From the NCBI GenBank assembly GCA_973895155.1, contig OZ316896.1, positions 7,573,278-7,637,277 on the forward strand: DNA of 64,000 nt, given 5' to 3'. The notes under the pieces are model-generated. The model saw nothing but the letters and a program-made list of their open reading frames with translations. It was not told where the DNA came from and ran no database searches. Source of the stretch: Marsupella aquatica (taxonomy: Eukaryota; Plantae; Marchantiophyta). Positions within the stretch are counted from its first letter, which is position 1, and every line of letters begins with the position of its first letter. Of this stretch, positions 8,521-63,189 are shown piece by piece. Made by a program: the position numbers and the translations under genes.

Positions 8521-8531
8521 GCCTGCGCATG

Positions 8532-26098: not shown

Positions 26099-28917
26099 GT
26101 CATACCTGGCATATGTGGAGTTGGGTGGAAGGAATTGCAATTGGGATGTTACAGACATCTCTTTCGCAAGTCCAATCGATCCTACCTACTGACCGTCTGA
26201 CAATAGGAGGAGTGGATACGTTTGAAGCTTTGGTTTTAAACATCACCAATGATTTCAAGACATATTGTGAAACAATGAAGGCTAAGTTTTTTAGCACAAT
26301 TTGGCAGTCCAAGTACGGGGACAAGGAAGATTAATATACCATTTGCAACTAGAAGCGAGCGAAGAGATATCTCTATCGCTTCTACATGGCGATGGAGACC
26401 GGTTCTCCCCAGTATTTTTGGGCTTACCCTCCTGCATTCCAAAAGTGGTCAGTTCTTGAAGGGGATGCTTTTAGCGAAGTTTACTCAATGTACCCTGCCG
26501 AAGGGGACTTTCCCCCGCGTGACATTTCATTGTGGGAGATAACCCACTGTCTGTGGTATCTTGACACAGATAAGTGGGACACCCCTTTTGATGAAGCTGA
26601 AAAGGATGCCTTTCTGAAATTGTCAAAGTCTTTAGTGCCTAGAAAAGTTATTTCTGAAATGAAACAAGGTTTATCGGAAGATGTGGATGCCTCGTCCAAT
26701 GAGCTGTAGAAACATTGTGAAATAAAAGTTGTGCATGTAGACAGGAGTCAAAAACCCCGGGCGAAAGCAAAAGTAGACACGGGAGTGACCAGCCCATCCA
26801 CAAGATCTGGGAAGAAACGTGAGATTCCTCTATTTTTCATTGGCATTAATTCCGTATTTTCCCTTTACTAGTTTGGATATTTAGGTGATTTTTTCTATAG
26901 CACCACAGATGTTGGTGTCCCTTTATTGGTTGATTTTTGTGCAGTTTGGTTAGCGCCCGGCGCTGGTGTTATTTAGATTGTAAGATTTCCAACTTTTCAA
27001 TCTTTGTTTTAGGTGGACAAAAATCAGATGGAGAAGAAACACAAGATGCGAAGACGATTGTCACTCTTGGCGTCTCTGATGTAGATACGGGGGAACAAGA
27101 TGTCCCTGATGAATAGACTCCTCCCAACACGAAGAAGATGGTGCGACCAGTAGATGCCACCAGCACGAAGAAAAAGAAAAAGAAATCTTCGGATCATGGA
27201 TTTTCCTCTTGGGATTTGGTCGCTTCTACTGGTGTTCAACGAGATGTTGGACAGTTCAAGTCTAAAACTTCTAGGCATGTTTTTGTGGAGTCCAGCGTGA
27301 TGGACTTCTTTGATAGTGTATTCACAAAAGAGCATAAACCGGCATGGGTTTCAAATGTGGAGAAGTGGGGGAAAGACCTTGTCTTGCTTGGTCTCAAGGA
27401 GAAAGGAGTCATAAGAGGAGGAAAGATGAGATCATTTGGAGTTGATGCTGGATTCATTTACCTCCCAACTGGACTGCGCCCATCTCTTTTAGAGAAGTCT
27501 CCAAAGTGGAATTTTCCAGATCACAGAATTGCTGGGTCATTCTTTCGCGCAATGGACCCCTTTCTAGCCGATGATGGTTTATTGGCCATTTTACACACCA
27601 GCGAGTATGATCAGATCTCACAGGTCATTGCCGCGAGCCAGGAGTCTCAAAAGTTCCATTGTGTCAAAACCCTGAATGTGGTTTTGGGAGTTTCAATGTA
27701 CATGGCCCAAAGTGATTGTGAGGTAAATTCCCACCCAACTATAAGGTTGTTTCCAAAATTGGATTGATATGTCTCTCACTCTACGTGCTCATCTTTACTA
27801 GCGTCGAGCGCGATCCAAACAATTGCTTACCTTTGAGGGCTGTGCTTTGTTAGCATCAGGCGCTATCTACAAATGTTTCATATGCCCTTCCATTTGTGGG
27901 CTATACTTTGTTAGCGCCTGGCGCTATCAAAAACTTATTGGTGTTGCCTTGATTATAGGGAATTTCTTTTCATATTGTCTGCATCTTTACAAAGAACTTA
28001 TTAATTGTTTGGGTCTTTCACAAGTTTTCACTTTAAGATTGGATCTGTTCAGTTGTGTTTCTTCGAAGGTTAAGGTTCCAAAGGACCCACTCCTTCAGCA
28101 GCATTTGTTGGGAACGGACTCTTGTCTGTTGGGTTCATGCAATCTGTGTTAGAGTTAATCACCCGGCTGGGTGACATTGTTATGGACTGGACTGTGGGTT
28201 CAGGAAGTTCATTTGTTGCGGGTGACTATAGTGGTCATTTTATTCTTGGCATAGAAAACCGAAAAGAGTTTGTTGATATTGCGGAACAGACTTGGATGGA
28301 GTTGTTGATTCCAAAAGATGTCAGTTCCTATCTCTAGCTAAAGATGCGGCAAAAAAACAGAAAGATAAAGTTTGATCTGTCTTAAATTTTGACTCTGATG
28401 AAGAAGAAGATGCGGGTGGAGATGACGCTTCGGGAGCACATGGGGAAGAGAATGCAGGAAACCAAAAGGAGAGGGAGACGACGGAAGAAACAAAAGATTC
28501 AGATTCTTCTGAGTAATGCCCGTACCTACTTCACTTTTCATTATCGATTTTGGATATGTCCCATTTTGATTTTTGATTCTAATGCGGTTCTGTCCCTCTT
28601 CCAGATCGGAGTGGAATCTTTGAGAACGGTCGGGAGAACGGTTTAATCTCCGGAGGATATTTTCTAGGAAAGTTCTCATTTCTCCTCATAAGCCTTTCGT
28701 GTTGCCCTCTTATGCAGAATATGTTGCACGCAAAGAAGAATATAGGAGAACACTTACTTGGGAGAGTAAGGGGCTACGGTTAAGGAGAGGTTCGGATAAG
28801 AAATTCATCCGTCAGCCTTTTCTTGGTGATGTACCTAGAAGCAAATTTATAGACGATGAAGCCAAGTCTACCAATAGGTCTGATAGTAGTGAGTCCGAGT
28901 CATCTGACTTGGAGTAG
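26099..28917 (+). pseudogene. 3' part of a ParB-like/DNA amino-methyltransferase-like gene (paralog of gene at 48475-62851), 5' part removed by CACTA-2
   Basis: Collinear with 49850-62851 (HTW..W..VEGI, YFWAYP, WYLDTD, WVSNVEKWGKDLV, SFGVDAGFIYLPTG, MDPFL.DDG.LAILH, FTLRLD). C-terminal ELITRLGDIVMDWTVGSGSSFVAGDYSGHFILGIE resembles motif X/I of N6_N4 MTases. Stops and frameshifts present. Confidence 0.85.
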
Positions 28918-30249
28918 GTTAAACTTGTGTTACTTTTTAATGTTTTAACCCTAAACCTTGGACTAGCGCCTGGCGCTATTAAAGTGTATGTTTTGATCTT
29001 AGCCTTCAATGGAGACAAACGCACCAGAAGTCTCTTTCCTTATTACACATTTGTCCACATATCATAAATGCATGTACTTGTACAGTTGTACGCAAAATAA
29101 TTGTACTTTTGATTTTCATACATATTTTTTCAATCTGGTCCCGTTGGTTTTGGTTGTTTTGACTCTCTCAAAGTGCCATTCGTTCTTTAACTTTGGGTCG
29201 CATTTCTCCCTATTCTTTCTGTGCGGCGCCAACTCCTGGAAGTTCTGCATCTACCCAGACTCACCTCATCGGGTATTATCCTGGACCTCCTTTTTTTGCT
29301 GAGCGAGAGGATGGGTTTCGACAAGATGAGGATAGGTTTAATGCAGGATTGGACAACGATTGCAAGTCTTCTACGTCCTGAATAGTGTGTGGATTTCTTC
29401 TGCAATACTAGCGCCTGGCGCTTACTTTGAACTCATCTTTGGAGTGGTTGATGATTTGCATTCATGTCATCTACTTCCGATGTTTTCTCTTTGAACGATG
29501 GCTTCTGTTGGGTATGATAGCCATGACAAAAAACAGAAAACAGAAAACCTGTTACCAGGAAATGTTTTGCTGTTAACAGTCAAATTTTACCTGTTACTAG
29601 TAAGCGATTCCCTGTTACCAGTTTTGCATCAACCATAGCCCTTTGGTCCGAATGAAAAACTACACTAATCACATAATTTTGCTTTAGTGAATTAGGTTTA
29701 AAACAAACAATTATTTTGTGCCATCCGATGGATGAAGAGTACTAGCAATCCTCCCTTGCAACAACATTATGTTGTAGAAGACAACTGAACACGGTATTGG
29801 GACTATACTCAATGAAACATTCATTCAAATATCAAAATTTGTCCAAGCTAAAAAGTGAACCTTAGGGTGGGACCCACCATAGAACAAGTGAAGAGTAGTG
29901 TCCAAATAAACTGAATCAAAATGAGTTCACTTAAATGGACTGTGTATCTTGACAAACAAATGACAAAACACCTCCTAGCGATAACTATATTTTTCAGAAT
30001 AATTGAATAAACGCGGCTTGAAAGATAAAACAGAATGATATCAACTTACACATTTTAAATAAAACATGTTGCAATGCTTACACTACACGCGTACATAATA
30101 AAGCAAGAAAAGTAAGATTTCTGGGAGCAACGCCCAGCGCTAACCAAAAAAATTTGAATAAAAAAAGTAAAATATCCATTGGCTAAAGACAAAATAGTGA
30201 CTATCCGTTATATTGAACAACCTAAACGGAAGTTTCGGCCTCTATTATA

Positions 30250-33154
30250 AGCCATTCAAGTTCTGCCTCTCCAAGACAAGCCTAACTTCGCCCACAGTCA
30301 AAATTGGTTGGCTACAAAGAGTCGACTCCCCAACCTTGAGCAAGTTTGAAAACATTTATGTACACCCAGTATAGATGTTTACAAGGCATGTACGACTTGC
30401 CACGCGAATGTCGTTGGAAGAAGTCCTCACAAGAGCAAGCATGGAAGATACAGATTTGCATGAAGTACAGCTTGGTGATCGAAGGTTCTCATGGGTTCGA
30501 ATTTGAAATTGCTTTCCAAAAGCATTTCCAGTCGGAACATTCCATTCCCCATCCAAACTCATCTCTTCTTGTCATGCAAACTCCATTCGCTTAGTGTGAC
30601 CCACAATGAGATTAGACCGAGGTCTTGAGTTCCTCCCATTCCGACTACCCAGCCGGACATTTGGCTCCAAAAACCTTATTGTTTCTGGGAACACGTTCAC
30701 ATTTATCCTAAGGTCAAATGAAGATGGCACAGATCGACTCGATCCTATTGTTCGGGCTAAGACAAGTCCTTGCTCTTTGAGGAACGTGATTTCAGAAAGA
30801 GAGAGGCTTGTACCATTCAAAATAGTCAAAATTTCAGGAAGAGGAGGAAGCTAATGAACACCACGACGCGAACGACTCTTATAATAGGTTTGGTTTGGGC
30901 AGAACCAAATCATTTTGGAGATGGGCTCGCCCCTGAAGAGACGATGGCCCTTCACGACAATTCCAACAACACCGTCAGACAAATGGAAGCCAACCTTCTT
31001 GATACGATTTCGACACTCATCGCGATCAGAACTCCCATTGAGTGTCCCATTACACTGGGGACCTGCTCCATACTTGGACGTCCGTCACAACTGCCACTGC
31101 CCCAGAGGGACATCCTTCTCTAGCACAATCGTGCATGGAAGTGGATTCTGAAGTGAGGCTGGGGCACTGAGTGGAGGTTTTGTGGATCTTGTTGTACGGG
31201 TTGTTTGAGGGTATTGTCCAGTGAATCAGTATCACCATCTGATGTGTCCATACCAGAGAGATTCACCACTCTTGTCACATGATCATTAGAATTAGAGGGA
31301 ATGGAGGCAAAGTCAGTTCTGTTTAGGTTTTTCCTTTTCAAACCACAAATATTTGGTGTGGTTATGAGAACGGTGTCATGCCGATGGGAGTCTTGTGGAG
31401 ACACAGTCCCAGTTGCATGTCCCTTTCTCTTCATTGACTTGGTCACGATATCTCCGTTAAGGGGAGTACTTCTTTCCAAATCAAAGTCCGCCGCGTTGGA
31501 AAGAAGCATGCTGGTCGCATCTTCAAATAACCTCGGCAAACCTACTTGATCGGCGGAACGGAACGCCAATTCCCATATAGTTGGCCCCTTTCCTCTGTTC
31601 AACCCTTTCCGATATGCATTGTATCCCGCAACTTGAGACAGGGCTCAGTTTTGGTCAACTTTGCATGCTTCAAAAAGACCAACATTTTTCTTTGTAGCCC
31701 ACGCTTTCATCGACGCATGCCTTGATTCTGACCCTGTACAATTGGGAATCAAGGCACCTTCTTCTGCGCTTTTGCTTTGCCATAGTCCGAATGCAATAAT
31801 AAGTACTAGCATTGTATTACCAGCGCCCGGCGCTGGCACCGACAAGTATGTATAACAGATGTGAAATACAATTGCAATTATGATTCTGGAACTTTATGGA
31901 CATGTTAGACTCAATGTATTGTATTCCTGGTTTTTACGTGTAAGATATGAGCAAATCATACCAACGCCTGGCGCTAATATAAAGTTGAATGATGGAAATG
32001 AAAGACAAGAGAGGAGATGGATGTCATACCACTCGAATAAAATTGCCCCACTGGCGCCATCGAACAACCCACCAAGATATCCAGCTTTGTAGCATCATGA
32101 GCTTTCCAGGGACACAGTTTCCTGATTGCCACCAAACCACAATCTCTTGGGACAAGCGATACTCTACCACAAACGTTGGAGCGTTTCTTAGTTTCTCCCA
32201 AAGTCTCCGATGTTCCGATTGACATTCTTCGAGTACTCCTTCCTTGGAATGTCGATGGAAAGATTGATAAAAGTGAAATGCATCAGAGCGCTCCCTCTCC
32301 GGGTCTAGGTGTCCATAAAAAAACATTCCGCACAACATTCCATCCAGCTTGTGCATTGTCCGCCATAAACCCTTGGATGACAACCTCTTGTAATCCATTC
32401 TCCTTGCAAACCTCAATCATAACTCTCCAAGCCTTTTCGAAAGACTCAGTGTCTTCACCTTTCAACTCGCATGTGAAAATTGTACAAAGTGCACGGAAGT
32501 TATGGTCGTAGACATGCACGCTAAAAGTAAACCAATTGGTTGTGATACGCTGCATCACATCAAAATTGACCCAGGCTCCATCGAGTCTTCCACCAAGTTG
32601 CATCTGTCTCAAAAGATCCACACCGGAACCGTGACCCTTTGTGGTCATTTTAGAGATGTGAGGCCTGTCGTCTTGATATCCCTGACCCAGGAGCAAATAC
32701 CTCTGGAGAAATGATAGGTTAATCCTCTTTTGCATTTGCGAGAGAAAATCTAGATCACCCCAACCCTTTTGGTCTATCCTAACGCTCCGACAAAGAGATG
32801 CAAACTTCTGGGGAGTGGAAAGTACCATCAGAGACTTCCATATTTCAGTTTCTTCGATATCGACCATGTCGTCAACATGTTCGTAGAGAGCTTTCACTAT
32901 GGACCCTGTAGCAGAATTCAAGATCCCAGTTGGTTTTGCCAGAGGATTGGCTTCATGATTTTTTTTAATTAAATCCTCAGCCATCTTCTCCGCACTCCTA
33001 CAAAAGGTTTTTCTATCTGGATGGTTATGCTCACCTATATGAATCGCCAAGCGGGACATATGACTACATGTTCCACATCAAGTAATACTTGCAGGTACAT
33101 ATAGAACAAACGGGCAGGGCGGTAATTGACACAAAAAGGAATCTGATCACAATA
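30250..33154 (-). pseudogene. MULE-type transposase with C-terminal SWIM finger (3' part)
   Basis: MSRLAIHIGEHNHP; WVNFDVMQR..F.VHVYD..LCTIF.CEL..ED; GFMADNAQAGWNVVRNVF..RSDAFHFYQS; NCTGSESRHASMK; SWIM ACSCEDF...MPCKHLYWV at about 30360-30450. Frameshifts and an intron at about 32030-31780. Confidence 0.8.
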
Positions 33155-33189
33155 ATCAGCCTATTCATTAAAAGTATATTATTATTTGA

Positions 33190-33520
33190 TTTATGTACAT
33201 TTGGGCAATGAAAAATGTACTTTTGGGCTTGGAAAAGTGTACATTTGGCCAATGAAAAGTGTACATTTGGGGATAGAAAAGTGTACAATTGGCCCAAAGA
33301 GTGTACATTTGGGCAATGAAAAGTGTAAATTTGAACATCAAAATAGGTACATTTGGCTTTAAAAGTGTACATTTGAGTACATTTGGCCTAGAAAGTGTAC
33401 ATTTGAGTGAAAAATGCATACATTTGGCTTAAAAAGTGTACATTTAAGTGCATTTGGTCTAGAAAGTGTAACTTTTAGTGCAACAAAGTGTACATTTGGC
33501 CTAAAAAGTGTACATTTGCC
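33190..33520. repeat. Left subterminal repeats AAAAGTGTACATTTGG
   Basis: More than 10 copies next to the left TIR. Confidence 0.9.
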
Positions 33521-33769
33521 TACCAACTCTTCTTATAATCATTTAAAAGAAAGGAATGAATAGAAAAATATTTTTAATTATGTAGAAAAAGCAAACATTC
33601 ATATTCATAATGATCAAAAGTTTAGAAAATGAGGAGATAGTATCAAATTAAAACTATTAGAATAGTAAATAACTAGTACGTAAATTACTATGTTTGAATG
33701 AGTGACTATCTTAGTTACATAAAAACTAGTAACTATCTATTTAATTATTATAGCTTCTAACAACTAAGT

Positions 33770-36700
33770 CTACTTGTCCATCCTTTGAAGATAATTTTGG
33801 ACAGTTTGTAGAACATTTCGAGGGATCTTCAAACCTCTGCCCGCCATGTTTTCTTCTTTCATTCCAGATTTAAAACCATACATTGCAGAATTTGCATACT
33901 GCTAATGTTGAGTATTCTCACCAAACCCTGGATCTCGTTCCCATGTCTTAGTGGACATGAAACAATTTAGATACCGCGCACTCTCAATCACATCAAGTTT
34001 AGAGTGTTTAGGCCTCCACCATTCAACTGGGAACATTGGAGCGTACTGTCAAGGCAGAGAAGGGTTTGTTGAAGATGTAGTTGGGACTTCATGCTTTGGG
34101 TCCACCAAACCCAAAGCTCTCACCAACCAGAAATGACCTCCACCATTTTTATTCTCCCAATCATCCTCGGGTCGAAGAAATACAAAGTTTCCTTCACAAA
34201 TATCCTGTAAAGGAATCCATCGTCCTTGTTCTCTCTCAGCTCGAGATCCAACAAATGGTGTTGCTTGATCTTCCATCTCTTCCAAGACCTCATCTTGAAG
34301 AGCCGTTATCTCTGCATTCTCCTCATCTTCACTTGGAGGACCACTTTGTTCCGGTTGGTTGACCTTGTAACCAGTGCCGTGGTTAGTCTTAGGCCAAAAT
34401 CTGTTTTTCAAGGGAAATTTAGTACTTCCCTCCCCTTCTAGTGCGAGCCCATTTGTCAACAACTCCACAATTCTCTCCCAATATTTCACAAGAGGAAATC
34501 TTTCCTTATATGCTATAGATGTCTCATCAGTGCAACTCCTTCTCAAAAAATCAAAATACTTGTTAAGAAATGGGATAATCTCTTCAGATTTTTTGTGTAT
34601 CTCTCCAATGGATTTAGCTAAGGGCTCTCCACTAGGTAAAAGAAGAGAATTTGTTGTCAGAGCTGTTGCCCAAATGCACCTTCCACCAACTGGAGCCCAA
34701 GCTTGCTTTACATGGGACTTATACTGAAATATTGGTACATTATCTCTCATAGAGAAAAGAAATGATACAGGTTTTGAGTGACCTTGAATATCTTTCACCT
34801 TGAAAGTTTGAAGATATTCTTTGTAAGATGCAACTTCTTGTATCAATCTGGGAACTGGATGAATGCTCTCGCATTCCCATACCTCTGCCATAAGAGCAAG
34901 GAGGGTTGCAACTTCTTTGTGCTGAACTTGATATGATACCTTTGAAAAGAGTGCATCAACATCTTCGTGCGTATGACCAACCATTAGAAAAGACATTTGA
35001 ACAGTTTCAAATACTCCTCTACTCACAAGCTCGTTACAAAATGCCATGACAGTCTGGTTTTTGTTGTCCTTTGCTGAATTATCCATCTGCAATGTTAGGT
35101 GCCTTGGCAAGGGCTTGAACGATGGACTTCCTTGCTCTCCTTGCATGTCTTCTCCTTCATCCTCATCTTGTTGGTTTGGGACGGTCTCAGTCCGACTCTC
35201 AACTCCATCTTCAGAACCAATATACCTATTCACCGGTATATTCTTTGGTTCCAAATAACCCGTCAAAAATGCTTCAAAGTCAAGTAGGGCTTGAAAGAAG
35301 GTCTGTGAGGTTCCCAATGAAGGCCATCCAACATGTCACCTGTCTTGTCTCCATTGTACTCTTCAAGGTCTCGAAGACACTTAGCCAAGGATGTCACTAT
35401 GAAATCGGCATCTCCTGGCCAAAGGCCAGTGACACTAAAGTGTGCATAAACTCCTGGATCCCTCCCGTGGGTCAACATCCCTGTGAGAGCAATAGGTGCG
35501 GCATTCCATGACCCGAAAGAGATTTAGGAGTACTAACCATTTTTGGAATCCATGTCTTTCCTTGATCCATCTTGTCGTGAATAATGCAAAGATATTCTCC
35601 TGGGTGTTGTTTGGCCATCACTCGATGAGCGTAGTAAACATATCTACGTGACATTTGCTCACGAAGATGTTGCGCTCGCTTTTCTTCAATTTCAGCACGT
35701 TCTTTTTTCCTTCTTTCTCGCATCAAACTGTCTTTGTATTCACAAAAAAGAGTACACTTGGCAAATGCACCATCTTTATGAAAACTGAAGTTTGCAAATG
35801 AGTTGCTCCAGATCTTGTAGAGAGTATTCTTTGTGATAGGAGGAAGCCCTTCTTCCTTCATCTTTGTTCTCACATCTTCCAGAATCTCTAGCTTCTTGTA
35901 ACACGCCGGAAGACGGTACTCAGTAGAGTCTGTCCCATGTGCCCCTCCATAAGGCATATGAGGCATGGGCTCTGTATTTTGAGTCAAAAAAGCCTCCAAC
36001 AAAGCTCGTGCATGCAAGGTATTTGCCCTTGTTTTCATCAAGCCCGTATTGCCATGGAACCCAATTTTGCAACCCTCCACATATCTCCTTTTGTAATCAT
36101 AATATTTGGTGTGGCTAAAATCGTGGATAATTGCAAATGCATGTCTGCATACGACCATACCCTTAAGAACATGGTGTCCCTTATCACGAACATCATCCTC
36201 TCTATAGTGAAAGAGGTTGAAAATATGTGACGTTTTTGACTCGCTTGACATCCCATGAAATTCCATCCTAATATCTTTGATGTTTTCCCTTGGCATAATG
36301 AGACAACATTTTTGCTTGCAACAATTTTCTCTTTTCACGTCATCAATTGACGCCTTTGTTGTTTTTGAAATTGCCTTGGTTTCCAACAACCTCCTCTTCT
36401 TTTCATTCGGATCTACTTGATTCCTCTTGTTGAAATTGTACGGCCTTGAACACAGTACTCCTCTATCACTTACATCCGCATTGAGTTCATCCCTATCCAT
36501 TGAGTCCCTTCCACCAAAATGTATGACAAAAATTTTCCATTTGCAACTAGTTTTGTTGAATCAATCCGCCATCGAATCAAACTCACTACTCCCTTGGGAA
36601 AGTATTGTGCTGCCACGACATCTTTCACAGCAATCCCAACATGGTCATCACCAAGAATTTCATCATCAACTGCTGCTGTCACTTGAGGGACAGTGATCGT

Positions 36701-37527
36701 TCCAGTGGCAACCATTTTGGTTCGATCCAAACCAGTGTAGAGTTCAACCAACTCTGACATCCAGTTTGCCCGATGAAAATAGTCACACTTAGTGTCCGTG
36801 GTGTTCGCCGAACAAGACTGTGAAACAAAATTTGCCTTGTCCTTCTGCTTCTTAGAGGAAGATTTGTTGCTCCCATCAATATCAACATTCCATACTTTAT
36901 TATGGACGTCAACCACATCCCATAGAACCCAGGAGCCCTTTGCCTCTTCAATTGTTGCAGCTCCACCATGTGCGTAAGGTAAAGTCTTACTACCATGAAT
37001 CACATCTGTGACTTTTACACTAACCCGAGACTCACCGAGTAATATGTTATGACATCTCTCCATTGGATCGGTCTTGAAAACAACTCCAAAGGCCACACAA
37101 TGGCCAGAGATAAACATTTCAACCTCATCGCCTGGCCTTAGGGTGGTCGAAGCATCCTCCTCTACATTTGCAAAATTATGGATGTTGTTATCTTTTCGAG
37201 TTGAACAACTACCAATACTGATGCATTTTTTAGTAATCTTATCCGCAGATCGATATGCACATGACATATCCCAAATGACACATGAGTCAATGGCATCATG
37301 AAGATTTTCTGCCCTAGGCATTGGAAAAGGGAGCTTCCTAGTCTCACCAAAGGCCTTCTCAATGAGAACCCCAATTCGATTCTCTCCCAGCACAATATTT
37401 TGAACACTCTCTCGCGGATTTGTCTTTTGAACTGTCCCATTTCCAACGTCGTAACCATCGATTGTCAAGGTAACATCATCGCCCCTAGAAAACCTTTGAG
37501 GCATCCTTTTCCTATTTTCTTGCACAC
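33770..37527 (-). pseudogene. DUF7869/Sola1-like DDD/E transposase with N-terminal triplicated beta-rich domain
   Basis: CCKQKC, VCRHAF, FAKC, HLREQMSRRYVY, LCIIHDKMDQGKTWIP, MLTHG..WPGDAD, LTLQMDNSAKDNKN, FLMVGHTHEDVDALFS. ORFs 36470-37525, 35472-36500, 35263-35478 and 34049-35317 are joined by frameshifts. Confidence 0.85.
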
Positions 37528-37579
37528 TGAAAAAAATGGATTAAAACCAAACTCATGCAAATTTTGATTCAGACTACTA

Positions 37580-46470: not shown

Positions 46471-46521
46471 CAGGACTGATTTGTGAACAAAAGAAAATAC
46501 ACTTTTAATGAATAGGTTGAT

Positions 46522-51400: not shown

Positions 51401-51568
51401 CATAATGTTGTAATGTCTGTCCCAATGTATGCGGCAAAGATAGACCGTCAGGTAATGATCTACTCTTAACTATATCGCATTTTGAGTTATAACTCGTTTA
51501 ACTTGGAGTTGCCAACTGATACTTGGGATTGCTTTCCGCAGATGTTTACCCTCAGGCTGGACATATTT
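48475..51568 (+). pseudogene. Gene B, 5' part: ParB/Srx-like N-terminus and first half of MTase-like fold
   Basis: RIPLCRL..V..LQ..IEKLKDSFRSMGY..MFSVFDGNHRLYSW (ParB GxHR motif). Introns 49095-49231, ~50564-50735 and 51452-51541. VDAGFIYLPTG..WN..FFKYMDPFLSDDGFLAILH corresponds to the motif IV-VI region. Frameshift at about 50320 and TGA at 50912. Confidence 0.82.
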
Positions 51569-52317
51569 CATTGGTACATTTTAGGCATTTTTCCGATACT
51601 AAAAACACGCGTTTCTCAACGCGCCCGATACTAAACACAACGGAAAACTTCCGATACTCCCAGCTACGGAACTTCCGATACTACCCAAATCGAACATTAT
51701 TATCCGATATGTTTTGTATCAAAAACTTTATCCAATACCCATCATATCGGACAATGTCCGAAACATCCTGTATCGCAAATTGAGAGCCGACATGTTTTTC
51801 AGATGTCCGATAATAATAGTATCGAAAGCTAATTCCGATAGGTTTGGTTTCAGACATTTACCGATACAAAATGTATCGGACATATGTTTGCGATACTATT
51901 TACAACGGAAATCATTTGCAAAGGCTGAGGGATCGGTTACTATCTGTTGAAATTTCTATCGGACCCCTCCTCGGCTGCGGGCTTAAGCGTCCGATCTGTG
52001 GAGTATCGGATAGTGGCTTCCGATTTTTATAGTATCGGAAAATCCGATACTTTGAGGATGGGAAGGGGTTTTTTGCTTTGGCAGTACTGATGTGTGTCCG
52101 ATATGTTTCCGATGGTATTTGAATGGGACATATGGGACTTTAGTGTTTTACAATGTATAGGTTGCATGGAATTAATGGATTCAGATATGGGGCATACTTT
52201 AAGCAATAGATATGTATACTGCATGAAATTGTGGACAATTAGAAAAATCATAGAATGCCGATAAAAAGATAGTGCCGGTAAAAATATACATGAAGATGGT
52301 GGGGTCTACAATTTATA

Positions 52318-55300
52318 CTAACTCGTGGGGGGTATGTCTCTATCTTCCACTACAACTACGTTGGGTCTCTCTTGGACTATGGACCGTGATCTGGGAATAT
52401 ACGGCATGACAATGGACCACTCGGGGTCATTGGGATAGGGTAGGTAAAAGCATTGCTCAAGGTGATGTGGGAAGGCAAAGGGATCTGAGGACCTCCAGTT
52501 GGAACTGATGACACTATTTGCGGATGTCTTCAAACGAGTAAAACCGCATGCATCATCTTCACAAGTACGATTGTGGCCTACAAGATTCATCTTGAACCAT
52601 TTGCACTTGAATACCACTTCCTCCAAAGTAGTATGTGCATGGTACTTCACTGTTAGGATCTCCTCAATCTTCCCATAATGGGCCACGGTGGAGCGAATGG
52701 GATTCATGTCTGACATGCTACTCTGGGAATCTTGGGTGAACCAACCCATCACCCCACAATCCTGTGTAGCTGCCCTCTTCTCATCAAGTCGTTCCACACG
52801 AAAATGTCTCCCCTTTGACCACATGGCAGTCCGAGTCGTGACTATAAGTAGTGGACCATGAATCAAGGTACGAAGTTTATCTGTCACGTTTGGGTAGTGT
52901 AATACACTCTCCCCGGTACCCACCAGGGCATCCACTTCTAACAACTTCTCCTTCATGTATGGGTGAAACTTGGGAAATAACCGTGGGCGTCGACTGTTTT
53001 GCTTCTCCTCCTCATAAAATGTTGTCCACTCCCCGACAACCTCGGGTGAGTTATACAACATAAATGTTGTGAGCTGTAAACGCTCTGCTGAGCCTATGAG
53101 ACGCTCTCCAGATGCCCCAGTGAGTCTATCATCCTCGTAGTCAGCCTCTCGTGCCGCCTCATCTATCCATCCCCTAGGAGCACTAGGATCTAGTGTGGCA
53201 ACTATGTTTGTACAGTAAAACATACTCTCTGCTCCAAGATGACGCTCCGCAATGCTACCTTCCACCCTAGCGCGATTAAAGACATATGACTTCATCACCC
53301 CCATATAACGCTCTACCCAATACATCCATCGACAATGTACTGGGCCTGCAATTGCAACCTCGCACACTAAATGTATGAGGAAATGAACCTGACCATCAAA
53401 GAATGAGGGAGGGAGTGCCTTCTCCAACTTGCAGACAACCTCTACTCCAAATATCTCCATGGCAGCAATGTCATCCTCCTGTACCTCCTTTTGACATACC
53501 CATCTTAAGAGCTTACCCAATGACCAAAGGGCATCACGAAGTTCCTCACTACCCAATCCAATAATAGCAACTGGAAGAACATGTTCAAGCAACCGATGAT
53601 AATCATGTGTCTTCAAGAAAGATGGCCATTTTGGAGAATCCTCCCCCCCAAATGCCTTCCTAAGATTGGTACCATAACCTGTGGGAAACCTCATCAACCC
53701 AATACGTCTGCGAAACTCAATGCGCTCTGCCCTTGTCAAAACCCAAGGAGGATGGATGCTAGGGGGAGCACCAGGGGGGTCCAAAGATGGCCAAAAACCC
53801 AAAAGACCATGCATCCCCATCTCCTCACAACTTTCTCTCCAATTGTTATTTTTCTCCCCATATAGATGGCGAATCAATGATTTTCCCACATTCCCCTCAA
53901 TGTGCATAGGGTCTAACAAGTGATTAATGGGCATATCTGACCAATATGGCAATTGTGACAATGCAGACAAACGGGTCATGCCACATCTGAATAATGGTAA
54001 TGGATCACTCGGATCCTGAACTCTCCCCCATACCTCTCTCCAATATGTTGGATCCTTCCGCTAAGGTTGAGGACGAATATCAGGTTGGCCCTCATCAGTA
54101 TCATAAAGGAATGGATCACTCCTCCAAGGATGGTCTGGTGGAAGATATTTAGTATGACCAATGTAAACAATTTTTTGCAGAGTACTTGACTTGGGCCTGG
54201 CCACCCCCTCCAAATCGGGTCCACATGTAGAGCAAGCTCGATAGCCTGATGTTTGCAATCCAGAAACATATCCAAACCCTGCCCAGTGCATAGAAAACAC
54301 ATTAATAAAATAAGGTTCATCAAGGCAAAAATCTGCATAATTGCAATTAAATACAAGGTTTAGGTACTAGAGGAAATAAGGGTTTACCATACCTGGTAAA
54401 TCATGCATGGTCCACATAAGGATGGCCTTTAGAGTAAATACGCGGGATAAACCTCTTGTGTTGTGACGTCCATCATAACAATCCACTCCTCTCCACAGTT
54501 GTATCAACTCATCAATCAATGGCTGCAAGTACACATCAATCTTTTTAACTTGCTTAGGACCCGGAATAATCATGGAGAGTAGTAGTTGACCTTTCTTCAT
54601 GGCCATCCAAGGAGGGATGTTGTAGTTTGTCAACACTACTGGCCACACCAAATATGGTTTGGCTTTTCCTGTCAATGCAAAAGGGCTGATACCGTCTGCT
54701 GCCAAGCCTAGTCAAACATGTCGTGGGTCAATTTTGAACTCTCCCCATCTATCCTCTACAAATCAATTGGCAGGAGAGTCAACCATCATCCGCATGGCAC
54801 TAGAGGGTACAGCCATATCAGAACGATTTTGTGAGTGCCATACCATCATCTCAGCCAACTCTACACATCGGAATTGATGTCGCAATCGAGGGATAAGAGG
54901 AAAGTACCTCATAACTTTTTGCGGTACCTTCCCCGTCAACATGTCATCACGGTACCGTGGCTTCTGACATTTAGGACATGTAGTGGCATTTTCATGCTCA
55001 CCCCTAAAAAGAATGCAATCATCCACACATGCATGTATCACCTCATACTTCAGGCCAATGGACCTCAACACCTGTTTAGCCTCTTTCCAAGAGGCTGGCA
55101 ATGCATTGCCTACTGGCAAAATATGATCATGCAAGGTACGGAAAACATCATCCAAAAGTAGATTGCTTGCCCCATGTCTTTGCTGCAAGTTGAGCAATAA
55201 CATTATTGATGAGAGCCGAGATAACCTACTCCCCTCGAATATGCGAGTACGGGCATGACGTTGCGCCTCCTCCCATTGCTTGTCTTGGGACCCCCTAGAA

Positions 55301-55560
55301 AGATGTGGATGACTAGTCCTTTCATGGGTTGAACCAATGTCCTCCAAACCAATGTCATCGTGATCATCATAGAATTGGTCCATGAGCTCATCCATGGCCC
55401 TCTCCTCATCAAGATGGTCTTGGATAGGATCATCACCATCATGTCGTACCCCATCCTCTTGCCTTTGTGGTTCATGCCCACGGTTGGCCACCATGGCCTC
55501 AACAAGGTGTTGTCGCATAGCTCATGATATTACCCCAATATCAGGCGTTACATATTGATT
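52318..55560 (-). pseudogene. CACTA TnpD/Tnp2 transposase pseudogene
   Basis: IHACVDDCILFRG, MRYFPLIPRL, LGLAADGISPF, YNIPPW, WTMHDLPG, DPMHIEGN, LKTHDYH, WMYWVER, DPFAFPHHLEQCFY. Stops at 55522, 54763 and about 54712. Confidence 0.93.
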
Positions 55561-55682
55561 CTATCATACAACATCAATTAATTAATCTCATCAACACATG
55601 CACTGTTGAACAACATCATTCTCATGTAAACATGTAAAATAAACTGACATATATATATAAAATATGTAAGTCCAAGAAACTA

Positions 55683-57010
55683 TCATGGACGACAACGCAA
55701 GGACAATTTTGGTGCATCCCACTCATACTCACACAATAACTCCTCACCAGCTCTAATGGTCCTAACAGCTACTGTCATGATATGGTCGTCCATATGTTTC
55801 ACAAAATATGGATGTCTAGGTGGACCAAACATTTGAATCCACTCTACATTAGCCTCCAAACCTCTATCTCTACCTGTGGTACTATTGATGTACCCTGCTA
55901 AATTACCGTTCCGAATAGGGTCACCATCAATCATCCAGCAATGCCACGGCCTAGTGAAGACCTCATCCGGGTCTGAGTCCATCCTCAATGTATACACCCC
56001 CCAACTTGGGTGTTGACGCAACAAAATATTCCAACTCTTGGAGTTATATACAGCCCCAATGTAAGGAAAGAGGTGCTCTCCATCATAACCACGTCTCCAT
56101 GGCTTTGGAGGGACCACAATATCCTCCAAAGCAAAAAGACCATATCCTATATCAGGACCAATAGAGGATGCCTTCACTATCCAAGGGCGACCCCATATTT
56201 GAACTGGTTCATCTGTAGGAATAAAATCTGGAAATTTGAAGAGACTTGGAGAAAAGTCCTTCAAAACTTCGGCAGCCCTACCAGTGAGATAGGATAGTCC
56301 AAACCTGCCCTCAACGCAAATATAATCTACGTTACCGGCTGGTCGATCACTAGTACCTAACACCTCCTCTCGTTTGTCTACCTGGTCCAGTGGTCCATAC
56401 TGCCGTCTACGTCTACCAGATCGTGGTCGTGTACGTAGGACCCTAGTAGTCACAACCTCGGGCTGAGAGACCGGTTCCCCCTCTACATGTTCATGTGTGG
56501 GCACGGGAGTGGGGATAGGAGCAGGTGGGCTAAGAGGCATCTGGGCAGGAGGAACTGCAAGCAACTCCCTGGCCCTTGCTAGAAACCCTTCCAACCACAC
56601 AGCTTCAGGAACCAAAGGAGGTGGGGGCCTATGAGGCACCTATTTCAACACACGTACAATGGTTTTACACAAATCAATAAATTAAGTAGTGCCAGGATGT
56701 AAATGAAAGATAATTAAGCAATACCCTAAATTGGAATGCATACATGGAATGAATAGGGGACATAAACATATCTGTACCTGGCTAGGCAAATACCCTGGCA
56801 TATCACCCTCGTGGCGGCCATAGTTCTCGATGTGCTCACAAGTCTCCCACGCATGTCGAACCACAAGTCCCTTACATCTCACACACCAGCAAGGTATGGG
56901 TCCTAGTGGAGCACGAGGACGATCTGGAGGAGGGGGTGGAGGAACCTCCCCCTCAGACGAGCTTGTGTCTGAGTCTGAATCTGACGTGGAACTATCAGAA
57001 GTAGACATCT
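55683..57010 (-). CDS. Transposase-associated Zn domain fused by splicing to a SET domain
   Basis: Exon ending 56778 (IPCWCVRC..HIENYGRH) joins in phase 0 to the exon starting 56639. SET motifs: VKASSI..GYGLFALEDI, FPYIG, IDG..GNLAGYINS, ANVE, VAVRTIRAGEELLCEY. Confidence 0.85.
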
Positions 57011-57326
57011 GCATGCATGAAGTACACTCTGAATTCATGTAAGCTGCATAAAAGAAGACAAGTGTTGGAGTATCAAAATAGAATTAATTAATGCATGAGA
57101 TACAAAAGTCCTGTTGTACCTCAATGATACCCGCGCTTTGCCAGCCTACTGTGTCGTATTTTCTACACACAAGGTGTGGGACATCCAAAATCTCTGCATA
57201 TATGGGTGAGCATTTTGCTAATGAGCATACTAATCTGTAAGTGCGAAAGAGTGTAGGAAGAACACACCACATATAAAAAAATTCCAACATACAAATTAAG
57301 TGTAAATGACGCGGCTCGTGAAGCGG

Positions 57327-58027
57327 GGACATCATACCTCCTGGATGCGCGGTCTCACACTATGCATAGTGCATTGTCCAAAACAAAACCTATCTACCCC
57401 CTCACAAACATTGAACCACCCCTCCAAACGCAAGGTACTATGCATCAAATCCAACAAAACCATTAGCCTAGCTAATATATGGAGGTTGAACCTTATCCTA
57501 AGAAAAGGTGTAACCTTATCCTAGTAAAACCCCATAACCCTAAGCCCATAAACCCCTCCAAAGAAATGATCCAAATAGCTTTCACCAAGAAATGGTTCGT
57601 ACAAAAACTTCTTGTAGTATTTTGTCTATCATATATCATAGTATTGAGTTCCCATCACCACAACCATCCCTAAATTTGCAAGGAACTTGCAAGAGGACAT
57701 CATACCTCCTGGATGCACAGTTTCATGCATAGTGCATTGTCCAAAATCGAAACCTCCCTACCCCCTCAAAAAAAGTTAACCACCCCTCCAAAAGCAAGGT
57801 ACTACACATCAAATCCAAACACAAAGATTAGCCTAATGAAGGGGTTTAATATTATCCTAACAAAAGGTAGAATGTTATACTAATAGAACCTCTACGTACA
57901 CCCATAATCCCCTATAAAGAAATGAAACAAAAGGCTTTCACCCGAAAATGGTTCATACAAAAACTTCTTGTAGTATTTTCTTGATCCTATATTACATATC
58001 ATAGTATTGAGTTCCCATCACCACAAC
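57327..58027. repeat. Imperfect ~370-bp direct duplication
   Basis: GGACATCATACCTCCTGGATGC...GTATTGAGTTCCCATCACCACAAC occurs from about 57327 and about 57694. Confidence 0.88.
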
Positions 58028-58575
58028 GTAACCACCCCTAAAACACCAAGACTCTATACACAATTGCATCATTAATTAGAGCCCAATATATTAAGCATGC
58101 AAGACCATAGCTTATCAAAAAATTATGAAGTCCGGTACAAACCCCAAAATTTTTTCTCCGCAACAAAGAAACTTGCAAGAGGTCCCTCTACATGCATGAC
58201 ACGTTCACTGTCCCGTTCACATATGTAGAGCCCTACAAAACGCGGATTCAAATATGAAAGCAAATAATAACTCCAACCATGTGCCCTTACCCCATACAAA
58301 ACCTAAATATCCTAACTTATACTCTAAACCCTCCAATCCCATACCCAACCCAAATTCAAAACATTATATTGGACCCCCTTTGGGAAAGCCAAGAGGTATC
58401 CGATATAACTTCATGAGGGGTCCGATGCAATAGGAAACGGGCCACACTTGGTAAATACACGGCCACAAGAAAAGGACGAGGGGTCCGAAGCAGATAGTTT
58501 CGGAAAGTCCAATTGCGTGTCTTATACCTTTGGTTTCGCAAAGTCTGAAACAGAAAGAATCGGAAGCAGCAGGTT

Positions 58576-61040
58576 TTGTTTCGGAAAAAAGAACCGATGC
58601 AGGTGCGAAGACCCGCGCGTCGGGCCCCATTTCACACTTGGTGTTTTTCAAATTTTTTGAAGCTGGATCAAGGAGGAGAGCTTGAAGGAGGAGGAGAGAT
58701 GGAGGGGGGCGGGGGATCAGGTGGTGGGGGAGACGAAGGGGGATCAGGTGGTGGTGGAGAGCAAGGGGGACCGTCCCAGCCATACAATGAAGTTATGAGG
58801 GACATTTTTGTGGCCAAGGCAGGGCTGAGTGTGGAGGACGCAGAGAGAGTAGTCCCACTCCTCCAAATGCTGATTGATGCCTCTCGGCGTGAGGCAGAGA
58901 AGACTGCTGCTTCAAGCATTGCAAGTGAGAAGGAGGCAAAGAAGAGGAAGAAAGAGGCAAAGAGAGGCAAGGGGGATGCAGAGGAGACACTGTCTCCAAG
59001 AAAACGAGAGAAAAAGCTTCGAAACGAAGCTAGGGCAATTGAGAAGGTGCGATTGGAGGAGCAGAGGCGAAAGGAGGCAGAGAGAGCTCTCAGGCCTGAG
59101 CTAGCTCTCAATTCGGGTGGTGGTCCATTGCCTAAGAGCTACCATCTATTCCGAAGCCAATTCAAGCAGGTGCTGAGGGCCAATTTGGGGCCACTGGATT
59201 ACTGGGGCAAGAAGAAGGAGGAAGAGAGATTGAGAATCAGAGAGCAGGTGAAGGAACGGTTCAGGAACGAGGCCTACATTGATGACAGGTTCCTAAACAA
59301 ATGAATTTCAGCATCACTCTCAGACATGCGCAATCATCAGCGAGAGAAATTCAGAAAGTACCTTGGAGATATGGCAGTGGATGCAGAGGTGATCAGGGAG
59401 GAGGGTTGTCCAGACGATGTTTCCCCGGATGAGTGGGCGGCTTGGCTTGAGGAGGAACTCTCAGTCCGTGCCTGGCTGAAAAGAAGACATTGGGACAACA
59501 AAATTAGGCTGGCAGAGGAGAAGCGAAAGGCTGGGGAGAATGTTGATATCCTCCCCCTTCAACAGAACCTGCAACAATGAGCAGCTCAGGCAGCAAGACT
59601 CCCCAAACCACCAAGGCACATCATAGCAGCATTGGAGAGAGTGCAGGGGAGGCCAACCATCACTCATCGGATGGGGCAAGGCGGCTCCAATCGATTGAAG
59701 GCTGAGTTTGTAAGTGCCCTCCCTCTCCTCCCCACCTCGACTCCCTGATCACCTGACTCCTCGCACGAAGAATGAGTTGTTTGTGCCTTATGTCTTTTGT
59801 TTAAACCCTTTGCAAAACTCATTTTTGCTCTCAGGCTTGTTCTTTCCGATACTCATCCGATAGGTTTTGCATCGGAAGCAACATCGGACACCGTGTCATG
59901 CCATTTTTCTTGTTACGCATCCGATAGACGTCCGATGCAGGATGTATCGGACTTTGCATCGGACCCCTCGGCATAACATTTTGAATGAACGTACTTAACG
60001 TTAATTTTTTACTAGGGTAGAGTATAAGTTAGGGTGAACTATGGTTTAAGGTTACATTAGGGCTATGTAGGGTGGCTTGGTTTAGGGTAGGGCACGCTAA
60101 TACTAGATTTGATATTAACCTGGCCTCTATGGTTTGGATCTTTAAATTTCAGGAGTGGGAGTATGGTCGCCCTATTGCGCCGTTGGAGAGGAATTTGGCA
60201 AAGGATGGACCCCGCGCTCTAAAGCGCCACCTTGAGGATGAGTTGGGAGAGGTAAGTGTTCACCCTAGGTTGATATAATGTTTAAGGTTGTCATGAATTT
60301 GTTAGAGTTATGGTCGGGACCATTCATTCTAACTGCAATTAAACCCTATTGCACAGGATGAGGAGGGGTCTGGGTTAGAGGAGTTGGACTCAGATTCTGA
60401 GCAGGATGCTGAGGCAGGGTTGGGGAGGGTGCCCACAGTCACCCCTACTCCTCAGGTCCGAGGTATTGTTGCCCCATCTGGTGCCGTTGCCCCATCAGCA
60501 GGGAGGGGTGGGTCACATGCTGCTGATGGTGTGGGCTCCCATCGCTCTGGAGCATCACGGGGTGCGGGGCCCAGGCACTCAGGGGGTAGTAGAGGTGATG
60601 GCATGGGACAAGGCGATCACGTAGGAGTATCTGGTGCAGGTGGCCCTTCCCGACGAGGTAGTGGCGACGTGCCGGATGGTGGATCTAGAGGGCGCGCACC
60701 ATCTCGTGAGTCTGGTGGGAGTACAGCACGACATGGGCCACCCACAGGATCTGTCGGCGCACCATCCCATCACTCTAGCAGGTCTGCGGGAGGAGCTGAG
60801 GCATCCTTTCACTCTGTTGTGTCGGGGGTTGGTGGGACATCTACCTTGCCTGACCACCCTAGCGGTGCATCTAGTGGGTCAGGGTCTAGGCCTGCATCAG
60901 GCCAACCCATGCCATCTAGTGAGCAGGTGGCTGCCACGGTTGTGGGCAGCCAGAGGGAGGAGGGCTCTCATGATGCTAGACCTGTACCACCCCTTTGTTC
61001 TCGCCCAAAGAAGAAGAAGGGACGCAACACACCTTTTTAG
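58576..61040 (+). pseudogene. TnpA/Ptta-like gene of CACTA-3, multi-exon, divergent from TnpD
   Basis: W.KK.EEER..I.EQVKERF, CPDDVSPDEWAAW and THRMGQGG (compare SHFGRGG at about 23430). TGA stops at 59302 and 59578. Gly/Ser-rich last exon. Confidence 0.65.
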
Positions 61041-61893
61041 AGGTTAGTTGCATTTAGGTGGCCGGGTATCTAGTGCTAGACAGCTTTGATTAGACACTCA
61101 CTAGGAGGTACCTTGTATATAGCTCAGTGTAGTCTCTAGTCAAAGCTCTCTTTACATCTTCTATCGTGCCATCACGACCAGGATGGGTCTACCCAGTAGG
61201 CCTAATCCATTTTGTACATATTAGGGTGATACCCTTTTTGAATATGATATTTTGACCTCGTGTTTATAGCATTATCTTTGGTTCCTAATTGGTGTATGTC
61301 ACCTTCAACCCTAAACCAATACCCAAACCCCCAAAAAACCACCCATGAAACCCTGTATTCCACCCCCAGAACATTTGATAATCCGTTGCAAGTCCGTTAC
61401 CATCCGTATCGGTAATATAGCAGTGTCCGATGCTGCTGCCTTCAAACTTTCCCATCCCCAACGCATCGGACCCCTCCTTGAGGGTTCCCATCTTAAACAT
61501 ATCGGATAGTCCGATACAAAAACTAACGCACTTTCCGTTATTATAAATAATGCAATGTCCGATAAAAATTACTTTGCAAATTGCCATATCAAATATATCG
61601 GACATCCCGATGTAAATAGTATCGGACATAGGAAATCGTCGTGTGCCATCGCGTGTTAATTATCCGATTCATTTTACATCGGACATAAAATATCCATAAC
61701 ACATTACGATGGAACATCCGTTGTCCAAAATATTGGAAAGTCCGATGGAAGTCCGATGGTCGATATGCGATGGTTTACGCATCGCAAAGTGCGTTGGGAA
61801 TAGCATCGGATGATAGAAATTTTTGCGTCAATTTTCCTCAAGGGATCCGATGTAAATCCTATCGAATAAAGGCCCAAAAATGTACTAGTGTTT

Positions 61894-62851
61894 GGTCAAA
61901 TTAATGGGAAATTTAAAATTCCCAAAGACCCTAAATTCCATCCACTCTCCATCAGTGAGGACCCCTCGGTCACCAATTTGATCGGACTCCCTTCTCTCAA
62001 ATCCGATCCATTCCTGCAAATGGAGTTTTCTGGAAATGCTCGCCTGTCTGTCGAGTTTATGCAATTTGTCATCGAGCTTGTCACTCGACCTCGTGATATT
62101 TTTATGGATTGGACCGCTGGGGATGGAAGCTCCTTCATTGCTAGAGACTTCTCCGGGAGGTTTGTGCTTGGGATAGAACATAGAAAATTTATTGAAACCG
62201 CTTTGAAGGTTTTTCATGGATTTGTTGTCTCCCAACGAGATTGCGGTTTTACCTCCACCTGTTCCTACTGCCGACAGAAAGAAGCAAGATAAGCTTCAGT
62301 CAGTATTCAATTTTGACTCTGATGATGAGTCCAGTGAAGGTGGAGATGGCGAGGAACAAGGTACAGGGGACTCGGAGGAGGAAAAGGAAGAACCTTGTGG
62401 ATCTCCAGATGAAACCGATAGTGATGACTCTTCCGAGTAATGTTCATAACTCGTAAACTTCTTTCTCCATTCCTGTCAATTTATAACATTTCTGTGTTGT
62501 TTTGGAGAAGGCACCTAACCTACTGGATTTCGTTTCATCAGGTCAGAGTGGAATGCGAGGAGACATTTCAAACTGCGAAGGAGGGTTGCTAGACACAACA
62601 TAGAAACACCAGAAAAACCTTTTGTTCTTCCCTCCTATGCAGAGAAAGCCGCAAGGAAAGCCGAGAGTACCAGGATGCATTGCTGGGAAAATAAAGGTCT
62701 TCGGTTACAAAGGGGTGTTGACAGGAAGTTCATTAAACATCCTTATGTTGATGACTTCTCCCGCAGCCAGTACGTAGATGATGAGGTTGTGTCCATGGAC
62801 AAATCCGAGAGTACAGATTCTGGTTCTAAATCAGAATCTACAGAATCGTGA
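61894..62851 (+). pseudogene. Gene B, 3' part: N4/N6-MTase-like SAM-binding region and acidic tail
   Basis: RLSVEFMQFVIELVTRPRDIFMDWTAGDGSSFIA..SGRFVLGIE versus canonical KP..L...I...T.PGD.VLDPF.GSGTT..A...GR..IGIE. Final exon is collinear with 28600-28917. Confidence 0.82.
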
Positions 62852-63189
62852 CACGTATTGAGGAATTTAGGGAGAAATGTTTTACCAACGCCTAGCGCTA
62901 GTACCAACTTGTATTCGATTCCTCTCATTGGGTCCTTATAAATTAATGTCTCATTACTTGTGTTTTTTACAAGCGCCAGGCGCTCGCCAAATGGTGATTC
63001 ATAAAGCAAATATTTCCAGCTCTTATTTGTGTAACACGGCCGTTTGGTCTTTGTCGTGTCCTACCAACGGTCATCATAATGAGACAAATAGTAGGCAATA
63101 CATAGTATAATATACGTTTCGGATACCAACGGCCATTTCATTTAGGTCCGTTAGTTTGCCAAGGAAACCCACATGGACTGTATTTGGAT

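Follow-up and report, generated by a model that had tools for sequence, protein, structure and literature searches.

Why should two unrelated DNA transposons each carry, beside the transposase, a gene for a protein with a ParB-like domain and a methyltransferase-like C-terminus, and each also a palindrome of its own? This question is raised by a 64,000-nucleotide stretch of the liverwort Marsupella aquatica (contig OZ316896.1 of assembly GCA_973895155.1, positions 7,573,278 to 7,637,277; hereafter the window), where a Mutator-like element (MULE) and a Sola-like element with terminal inverted repeats (TIRs) show this arrangement. By analogy with VANC of the VANDAL transposons, we suggest that the accessory protein, acting as a dimer, binds the palindrome of its own element and thereby allows its family to go on being transcribed, a reading to which we give a probability of about one half. 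The observations behind it are the anatomy of the elements, a ParB/sulfiredoxin (Srx) fold in the modelled MULE protein, an alignment with beta-class amino-methyltransferases, sites that are internal and non-coding, and, among the relatives, a single palindrome family for each ParB clade. On this reading the accessory protein would act as a dimer that binds the family palindromes in the divergent promoter and the introns, its loading would depend on a nucleotide, and it would then perhaps spread from these sites as ParB does (PMC8367383). The element family would thereby be shielded from host silencing and stay transcribable, with a non-methylating methyltransferase domain serving as a DNA-binding or scaffolding module.

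The accessory genes and their palindromes

The window is CpG-depleted eukaryotic DNA built of nested DNA transposons (Table 1). The MULE hosts both the Sola-like element, inserted in its transposase gene, and a CACTA element, inserted in its accessory gene. An earlier interpretation made from the letters alone (the sequence-only reading) had recognized two transposon types; their layout proved to be nested and not side by side. The MULE-like transposase gene occupies the minus strand between 47455 and about 30300 and is interrupted by the 13,367-bp TIR element, and contigs of three of the four public runs contain empty-site joints that skip 13,371 bases, giving a 4-bp target duplication, AATA. 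Both accessory genes lie head-to-head with their own transposase genes and have GT/AG splice contexts, so the spliced, divergently transcribed genes of the sequence-only reading were confirmed. A second copy of the MULE accessory gene is cut at its left by a CACTA-type end at 26098 (CACTAGTG end). The two MULE copies share 53-68% amino acid identity, with nonsynonymous divergence (dN) of 0.25-0.39 and saturated synonymous sites. All three accessory copies in the window carry stops or frameshifts and are pseudogenes. Bacterial contamination is ruled out by the introns, the CpG depletion and the nested eukaryotic transposons.

With regard to the transposases, that of the Sola-like element matched DUF7869 (E 1e-38), whereas the SWIM match of the other was just E 0.27 and no MULE family of Pfam matched among the open reading frames (ORFs) of the window; the termini and target duplication of the MULE were looked for there and not found. 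We take this element to be a MULE partly from its DDE and SWIM motifs, read by eye against what we assume to be their consensus. The Sola1 label presumably holds as well, given the DUF7869 match and a motif that we take to be typical.

Motif A (TAGCGCC-W-GGCGCTA) is present in five exact copies. Up to two mismatches gave 14 sites against 0.05 expected from 20 Markov-3 simulations of the window, and up to three gave 19 against 0.35; 18 of the 19 lie inside the two MULE copies, and the lone site outside them, at 15764, is at chance level. Motif B has three exact copies and, in its relaxed form, 41 sites (0.05 expected), all within 35171-45049 in the Sola-like element. By approximate exon models covering about 65% of the region, none of the 18 motif A sites in the MULE copies is exonic, and 2 of the 41 motif B sites are in coding DNA. 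It is evident that each unit has a palindrome of its own, mostly in non-coding DNA, and that neither motif occurs above chance outside its own kind of element, as the sequence-only reading had stated; the extent of motif B was understated there, since it forms three tandem arrays.

Motif B sits at least 1.5 kb inside the ends of the Sola-like element, which has separate subterminal repeats, and this fits a reader other than an end-binding transposase. Motif B as the end repeat of the transposase was accordingly rejected. One of the motif B sites, at 45025, stands just ahead of a NIF/FCP1-like phosphatase gene.

The ParB-like and methyltransferase-like domains

The GxH(R/S) motif that the sequence-only reading assigned to the ParB-like domain is present in both proteins, as GNHR in the MULE type and GQHS in the Sola type. 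In bacterial ParB the motif is GERRxRA, which is replaced in the accessory proteins. For the MULE N-domain, 229 relatives were found at E <=0.001, and its model, built from 75 sequences, reached a predicted local distance difference test (pLDDT) score of 92.5. Foldseek placed ParB, Noc and KorB on top (E 0.02-0.1, best 0.019; probability mostly 0.9-1.0). In VIA-align, KorB, sulfiredoxin, PadC and other ParB/Srx proteins lead, the best values being Z 7.2, a root-mean-square deviation of 3.0 and 95 aligned residues, and the top 12 rows are all proteins that we take to belong to the ParB/Srx superfamily. No ParB family of Pfam matched the 75 aligned MULE-type members, and a PDB profile search likewise found none. 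The modelled MULE N-domain thus has a ParB/sulfiredoxin fold, with moderate scores. In the rest of the MULE protein, the middle region gave no Pfam or PDB profile match and no known fold, and no helix-turn-helix or C-terminal dimerization domain was identified in the accessory protein.

For the Sola-type protein, which has five homologues including one from Calypogeia fissa, fold searches from a low-confidence model (pLDDT 49; five homologues) gave no match, and hhalign found no significant link between the ParB-like domains of the two types. In the Atlas, homologues of both types share two top clusters (score 0.95), DUF3723 clusters included, and a ParB_N cluster (11% of members) was found for the MULE type. 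The ParB-like domain is therefore well placed in the MULE protein by the model, Foldseek and VIA, and in the Sola-like protein its motif and language-model neighbours suggest it.

These DUF3723 clusters are among the nearest Atlas neighbours of residues 285-450 of the Sola-type homologue P0003 and residues 165-325 of the MULE-type homologue P0158. DUF3723 is a conserved cargo gene of Starships, in a report where ParB is not mentioned (bioRxiv 10.1101/2021.12.13.472469). Judging from such neighbours, these giant fungal transposons may have in DUF3723 a ParB-like accessory gene. A Pfam comparison gave no link of DUF3723 to the ParB-like domains, and no literature pairing DUF3723 with ParB was among the matches listed.

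The beta-class methyltransferase-like region claimed for the C-terminus was borne out by alignment. The profile of this part in the MULE family is colinear with CcrM (E 0.0049), followed more weakly by DpnA and Mod, and the Sola-like part matched M.RsrI at E 0.045. N6_N4_Mtase (PF01555) gave E 1e-5 for the Sola-like and 0.0044 for the MULE protein, both below the Pfam cut-off, and PHROG methyltransferases were matched with E down to 2e-7. Motif I for binding of S-adenosylmethionine follows motif IV (DWTAGDG, DWTVGSG, DFFSGG). The C-domain thus aligns in sequence with the beta-class amino-methyltransferases.

The catalytic motif IV is another matter: it reads YLPT, as against DPPY, in both window MULE copies, and this erosion makes methylation doubtful. 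In the relatives described below it reads DLPT, DMPS and DMPT in Riccia, DVPF in Adiantum, and DYPE, DIPE (twice), DVPR, NIPR, NVPG, EVLG and DIPW (the last in locus L047) in metagenome loci. In this survey a strict regular expression gave one convincing row and a profile search did better. Among 14 readable sequences the first residue is D or N in 11, the fourth is aromatic in two and the canonical motif is found in none; some of the letters in decayed locus copies may be post-mortem changes. In the Sola-like protein the motif IV region (AIVDFS) falls at a frameshift. On the other hand, the methyltransferase part of the two window copies has dN 0.25-0.26 and a proportion of synonymous differences (pS) of 0.75-0.78, which indicates that past purifying selection on the gene extended to this part and that the domain was kept for something. 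Judged by its motifs, the methyltransferase domain of the MULE lineage has probably lost the ability to methylate and persists as a module for DNA binding or scaffolding.

These data bear on an alternative in which an active, site-directed amino-methyltransferase lays N4-methylcytosine or N6-methyladenine at or around the palindromes and so marks the element. The colinear CcrM profile with its weaker DpnA and Mod matches, a motif I-like D/Q-x-x-x-G-x-G retained in most sequences, the prevalent D or N at the start of motif IV, the aromatic residues of Adiantum and L047, and the existence of active eukaryotic N4C enzymes (PMC8885841) speak for it. However, YLPT is common to the two MULE copies, whose synonymous sites are saturated, and neither copy has the motif X lysine; P-P occurs in none of the 14 sequences and the aromatic residue is missing in 12. 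Moreover, the motif is essential in N4CMT, where a change of SPPY to APPA abolishes activity according to the portion of that paper examined (PMC8885841). We regard active marking as quite unlikely, and the idea that the protein marks its own element is weakened to that degree. The eroded motif IV shifts the question from which methyl mark is laid to what a dead methylase does on a ParB clamp.

Relatives, competing explanations and known systems

Named homologues were found in the liverworts Calypogeia fissa and Riccia sorocarpa and in two Adiantum ferns, and the Riccia protein P0158 (1,207 amino acids) aligns with the MULE gene across the ParB domain, the methyltransferase domain and what lies between them. 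From one metagenome scan came 93 relatives; the 80 loci retained fall into 47 clusters. A methyltransferase-like segment was seen in 14 of the 47 and a head-to-head MULE-like transposase in six, many contigs being too short for either. Of three homologue searches two were without matches, which is weak evidence.

None of the 80 loci has motif A or motif B at more than a single site. Instead, at least six further palindrome families were found, each limited to one ParB clade: GGGCTTC-n4-GAAGCCC in L001 (16 sites), GGTGCC-n6-GGCACC in L006 (17 sites), TTGGCGG-nn-CCGCCAA in L039 (8 sites), CATATGC-n6-GCATATG in L020 (10 sites), CTTTCGA-nn-TCGAAAG in L023 and L051, and CCAAGCT-nn-AGCTTGG in nine rows, with a weaker family in L003. 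The counts lean high because the motifs were chosen from the loci where they were counted. When the 18 rows for which a motif had been called were placed in a careful tree (the other 28 of 46 rows, mostly short or decayed, had none called and were omitted; all 46 were analysed by a quick tree), each of the three multi-row motif families fell on one side of a branch with 99-100 bootstrap support, and the seven motif changes are the minimum. The palindrome therefore co-varies with the ParB clade in the relatives, as the sequence-only reading had expected. As L018 and L019 are near-copies, and related rows carry shared labels, the tree demonstrates co-inheritance and not co-evolution.

The palindromes of the relatives are mostly intronic or 350-1,600 bp upstream of the ParB exon, and at least 5 kb from the transposase where both are visible, as in L078 and L020; those at L001:482-985 follow in steps of about 20 bp in the intron after the ParB exon. 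Five or more copies of some palindrome were present in 8 of 21 upstream 1.5-kb segments and in 3 of 54 tiles at least 5 kb away (Fisher P 0.001, which is not strict as the loci are related). These three control tiles and the mostly tandem state of motif B would suit neutral by-products of tandem amplification that have no reader, an explanation that we consider very improbable. Motif A and the sites of the relatives are dispersed among unlike flanks and still palindromic, the same motif A persists in both MULE copies despite saturated synonymous sites, and the sites avoid exons.

The accessory protein might instead bind the palindromes to repress its own gene and the transposase in the manner of KorB, limiting copy number. 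Site density is highest in the shared divergent promoter region, as repression would have it, and KorB is the best VIA match of the MULE N-domain (Z 7.2, tied with others). Yet distal introns and 3' DNA contain sites too, which fits coverage of the whole element as with VANC (PMC5735166), and CpG retention of the MULE is slightly higher, a weak point. Repression therefore seems distinctly unlikely to us.

Several observations weigh against self-binding for anti-silencing as we propose it. The Foldseek E-values are all above 0.001, and a Z below 8 can reflect a common arrangement. L001, with the closest ParB domain to that of the window (64-65% identity), has a different palindrome, which shows fast turnover and puts the specificity outside the ParB domain. 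Thirteen of the 21 testable loci had fewer than five copies. The core mismatches of motif A are C>T or G>A, as expected if the copies became methylated. The observed/expected ratio of CpG is 0.71 in the MULE, 0.54 in both the inner CACTA and the Sola-like element and 0.29-0.34 in two other CACTA-like regions, a weak comparison. The value of the Sola-like element is no higher than that of the CACTA control. The MULE, which is the oldest member of the nest, has the highest ratio; this weakly hints at protection, and element history could equally explain it.

The remaining adverse points feed a further alternative, in which the transposase or its N-terminal TnpA-like repeats read the palindromes and the ParB-methyltransferase protein aids otherwise (transpososome assembly, bridging) or is separate cargo. 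Palindromic repeat clusters at 17.4-17.7, 51.6-51.9 and 61.6-61.85 kb lie near the ends of CACTA-like elements with no detectable ParB gene, so that elements with a ParB gene are not alone in having such clusters. Transposases and TnpA can act as sequence-specific activators and anti-silencers (bioRxiv 10.64898/2026.08.24.746577). The N-terminal part of the DUF7869 transposase gene (36470-37540) contains repeated segments, seen as an internal tblastx repeat, with weak likeness to Transposase_23 (E 0.024). Moreover, motif, accessory gene and transposase are inherited together, and this linkage alone could explain the agreement between clade and motif. Against such a reader, the Sola-like element has subterminal repeats of its own, the sites cluster at the 5' region and introns of the accessory gene, far from transposase and ends, and ParB genes are paired with palindrome arrays also in Plavaka, which has a different transposase (bioRxiv 10.1101/2025.02.11.637652). 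On balance we judge the transposase an unlikely reader and continue with binding by the accessory protein.

The sequence-only reading proposed a new system, but the same architecture and the self-binding hypothesis are already in print, as the design of a ParB accessory gene with palindromes was reported in seaweeds in 2025 (PMC12477816; bioRxiv 10.1101/2025.02.11.637652). The elements in the window join this recently described kind. Together with their relatives they bring it to what are probably mosses, liverworts and ferns, each gene lineage having a palindrome of its own. What follows on these reports, as on the other published systems below, reflects the portions of their text examined. 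In Ectocarpus, Sola1-1_Ec32 carries a 1,104-amino acid ParB plus N4C/N6A methyltransferase gene opposite the transposase, for which self-binding and self-modification were proposed (PMC12477816). Our Sola-like element shares its type, the TIRs with the 4-bp target duplication listed for it, and the opposed gene with both domains; it is likened to it by architecture and not by protein sequence. The brown algal element is 21.5 kb long with a 282-bp TIR, and no internal palindrome is described in the text examined (PMC12477816), whereas ours, at 13.4 kb, contains large arrays of palindromes and, in addition, a gene for a NIF phosphatase. In Bostrychia, the Plavaka genes PAG2 and PAG3 encode ParB domains beside tandem inverted repeats, have homologues in Mutator elements of Chondrus and were compared with VANDAL (bioRxiv 10.1101/2025.02.11.637652). 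The likeness extends to the ParB-like N-domain, the inverted-repeat arrays and the movement between superfamilies including Mutator, and 7BNR, the best structural match of the PAG domain, is also a top Foldseek match of our MULE N-domain. PAG3, however, is fused to a 2-oxoglutarate-dependent oxygenase, with the methyltransferase on a separate gene with SET, whereas here the ParB-like and methyltransferase-like domains are fused; no motif-clade analysis appears in the text examined (bioRxiv 10.1101/2025.02.11.637652). ParB-fused N6A methyltransferases of another group are known from chlorophytes and chytrids (PMC4738411).

VANDAL and VANC resemble our system in that a MULE carries an accessory gene and family-specific, often tandem, non-coding motifs; the VANC motifs lie in introns and upstream regions and in fast-evolving tandem repeats (PMC5735166). 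VANC, however, has DUF1985/DUF287 domains, for which no Pfam match was found in 29 window ORFs or 26 homologues, and the VANC21 motif YAGTATTAY is a non-palindromic 9 bp. Anti-silencing was demonstrated for VANC (PMC5735166), whereas for the present system it is a proposal. Bacterial ParB-parS, Noc and KorB share the ParB/Srx nucleotide-binding fold (PMC8367383). The palindromes here, of 15-25 bp, are in the size range of parS (16 bp); the accessory proteins differ in their G-N-H-R or G-Q-H-S and in having no ParA. The beta-class enzymes CcrM, M.RsrI and M.MboIIA, as well as N4CMT (PMC8885841), share the motif order IV...X-I and the colinear alignment; here motif IV is eroded, there is no chromodomain and the gene is borne by a transposon and not by the host.

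In the literature searched, which included few subscription journals, we found no report of ParB-methyltransferase accessory genes in land plants and no motif-by-clade analysis. The liverwort and fern homologues, the 80 metagenome loci with at least six clade-bound palindrome families and the DUF3723 lead are seemingly unpublished. The algal papers proposed self-binding from single cases (PMC12477816; bioRxiv 10.1101/2025.02.11.637652). There are now at least eight palindromes each tied to a ParB clade, and a full-length Riccia protein; with these matched pairs, anti-silencing, and binding to cognate as against non-cognate sites, can be tested directly in a bryophyte. If the proposal is true, it would represent a second, convergent VANC-like strategy, assembled from the partition machinery of bacteria, and would offer orthogonal chromatin tools with sequence specificity. 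Speculatively, a ParB-derived sliding-clamp system for anti-silencing could be common to several transposon superfamilies of algae, liverworts and ferns, with fungal Starships perhaps included through DUF3723. A nucleotide-gated dimer would load at the family palindrome, spread and shield the element from methylation, the dead methyltransferase would read DNA, and site and protein would diversify together; we hold this wider picture to be possible, though doubtful.

Feature map and neighbouring genes

Table 1. Features of the nested elements. Positions are those of the window; a dot in the strand column means no strand.
Feature	Position	Strand	Evidence or remark
Second MULE accessory-gene copy, 3' part (middle region, methyltransferase-like domain, tail); broken	26099..28918	+	tblastx to 49848-62803
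Motif A sites 26951, 27799, 27851, 27912, 28964, 29409	26951..29423		MULE copy 1, introns and 3' DNA
Motif A sites 30128, 31821, 31962	30128..31976		transposase intron and 3' DNA
Broken MULE transposase: core with SWIM-like C-terminal part	30312..33154	-	ORFs
Sola-like TIR element, 13,367 bp, AATA duplication, in MULE transposase	33155..46521	.	inverted arms, empty-site joints, end sequences
Left subterminal 22-bp repeats, TGTACA core	33194..33522	.	motif system distinct from motif B
DUF7869 (Sola1-like) transposase gene	34049..37504	-	DUF7869 E 1e-38
Motif B 27-bp tandem array (~32 units)	37572..38449		between divergent genes
Sola-like accessory gene: ParB-like domain (GQHS, ~41124-41681), beta-class methyltransferase-like C-terminus	39557..44065	+	start predicted; several frameshifts
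Motif B array 39719-39875 (5.8 units) and one site	39719..39950		predicted first intron of accessory gene
79-bp-unit array, one motif B per unit	41713..42106		intronic
NIF/FCP1-like phosphatase, third gene of Sola-like element; stop-broken	44993..46135	+	PF03031 E 2e-7 and 7e-6
Right subterminal 22-bp repeats, TGTACA core	46392..46470	.	
MULE transposase, N-terminal part	46522..47455	-	ORFs, empty-site joints, head-to-head homologues
Motif A sites 47661, 47725, 47851, 47998, 48060	47661..48074		between divergent MULE genes
MULE accessory gene, broken, CACTA-split: ParB/Srx 48529-49094 (GNHR); middle 49232-50563; methyltransferase-like 50753-51568 and 61891-62290; then tail	48421..62851	+	
Two motif A sites	50590..50697		intronic
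CACTA element (DUF4218, DUF4216, SET-domain gene), TTT target duplication	51569..61890		inserted in methyltransferase exon
Two motif A sites	62886..62985		3' of accessory gene

The third gene of the Sola-like element possibly encodes a phosphatase of the RNA polymerase II C-terminal domain. An ORF at 24638-24976 looks similar to the Transposase_23-like segments of the DUF7869 gene. No ParB-like gene was detected in the CACTA element at 51569-61890, within which a SET-domain gene (E 3e-6) lies at 55683-56639. On the left side of a CACTA-like element, likewise with no detectable ParB gene, tandem arrays of 26 bp (17369-17670) and 24 bp (18503-18627) contain imperfect palindromes. A tandem BRCT gene (E 3e-13) and an NSD-like PHD-finger gene at 6375-8547 adjoin a CACTA-like transposase, and chromatin-reader cargo seems common in the DNA transposons of this genome. 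Tandem arrays of 40 bp and 19 bp at 63202-63863 belong to a further element at the right end of the window.

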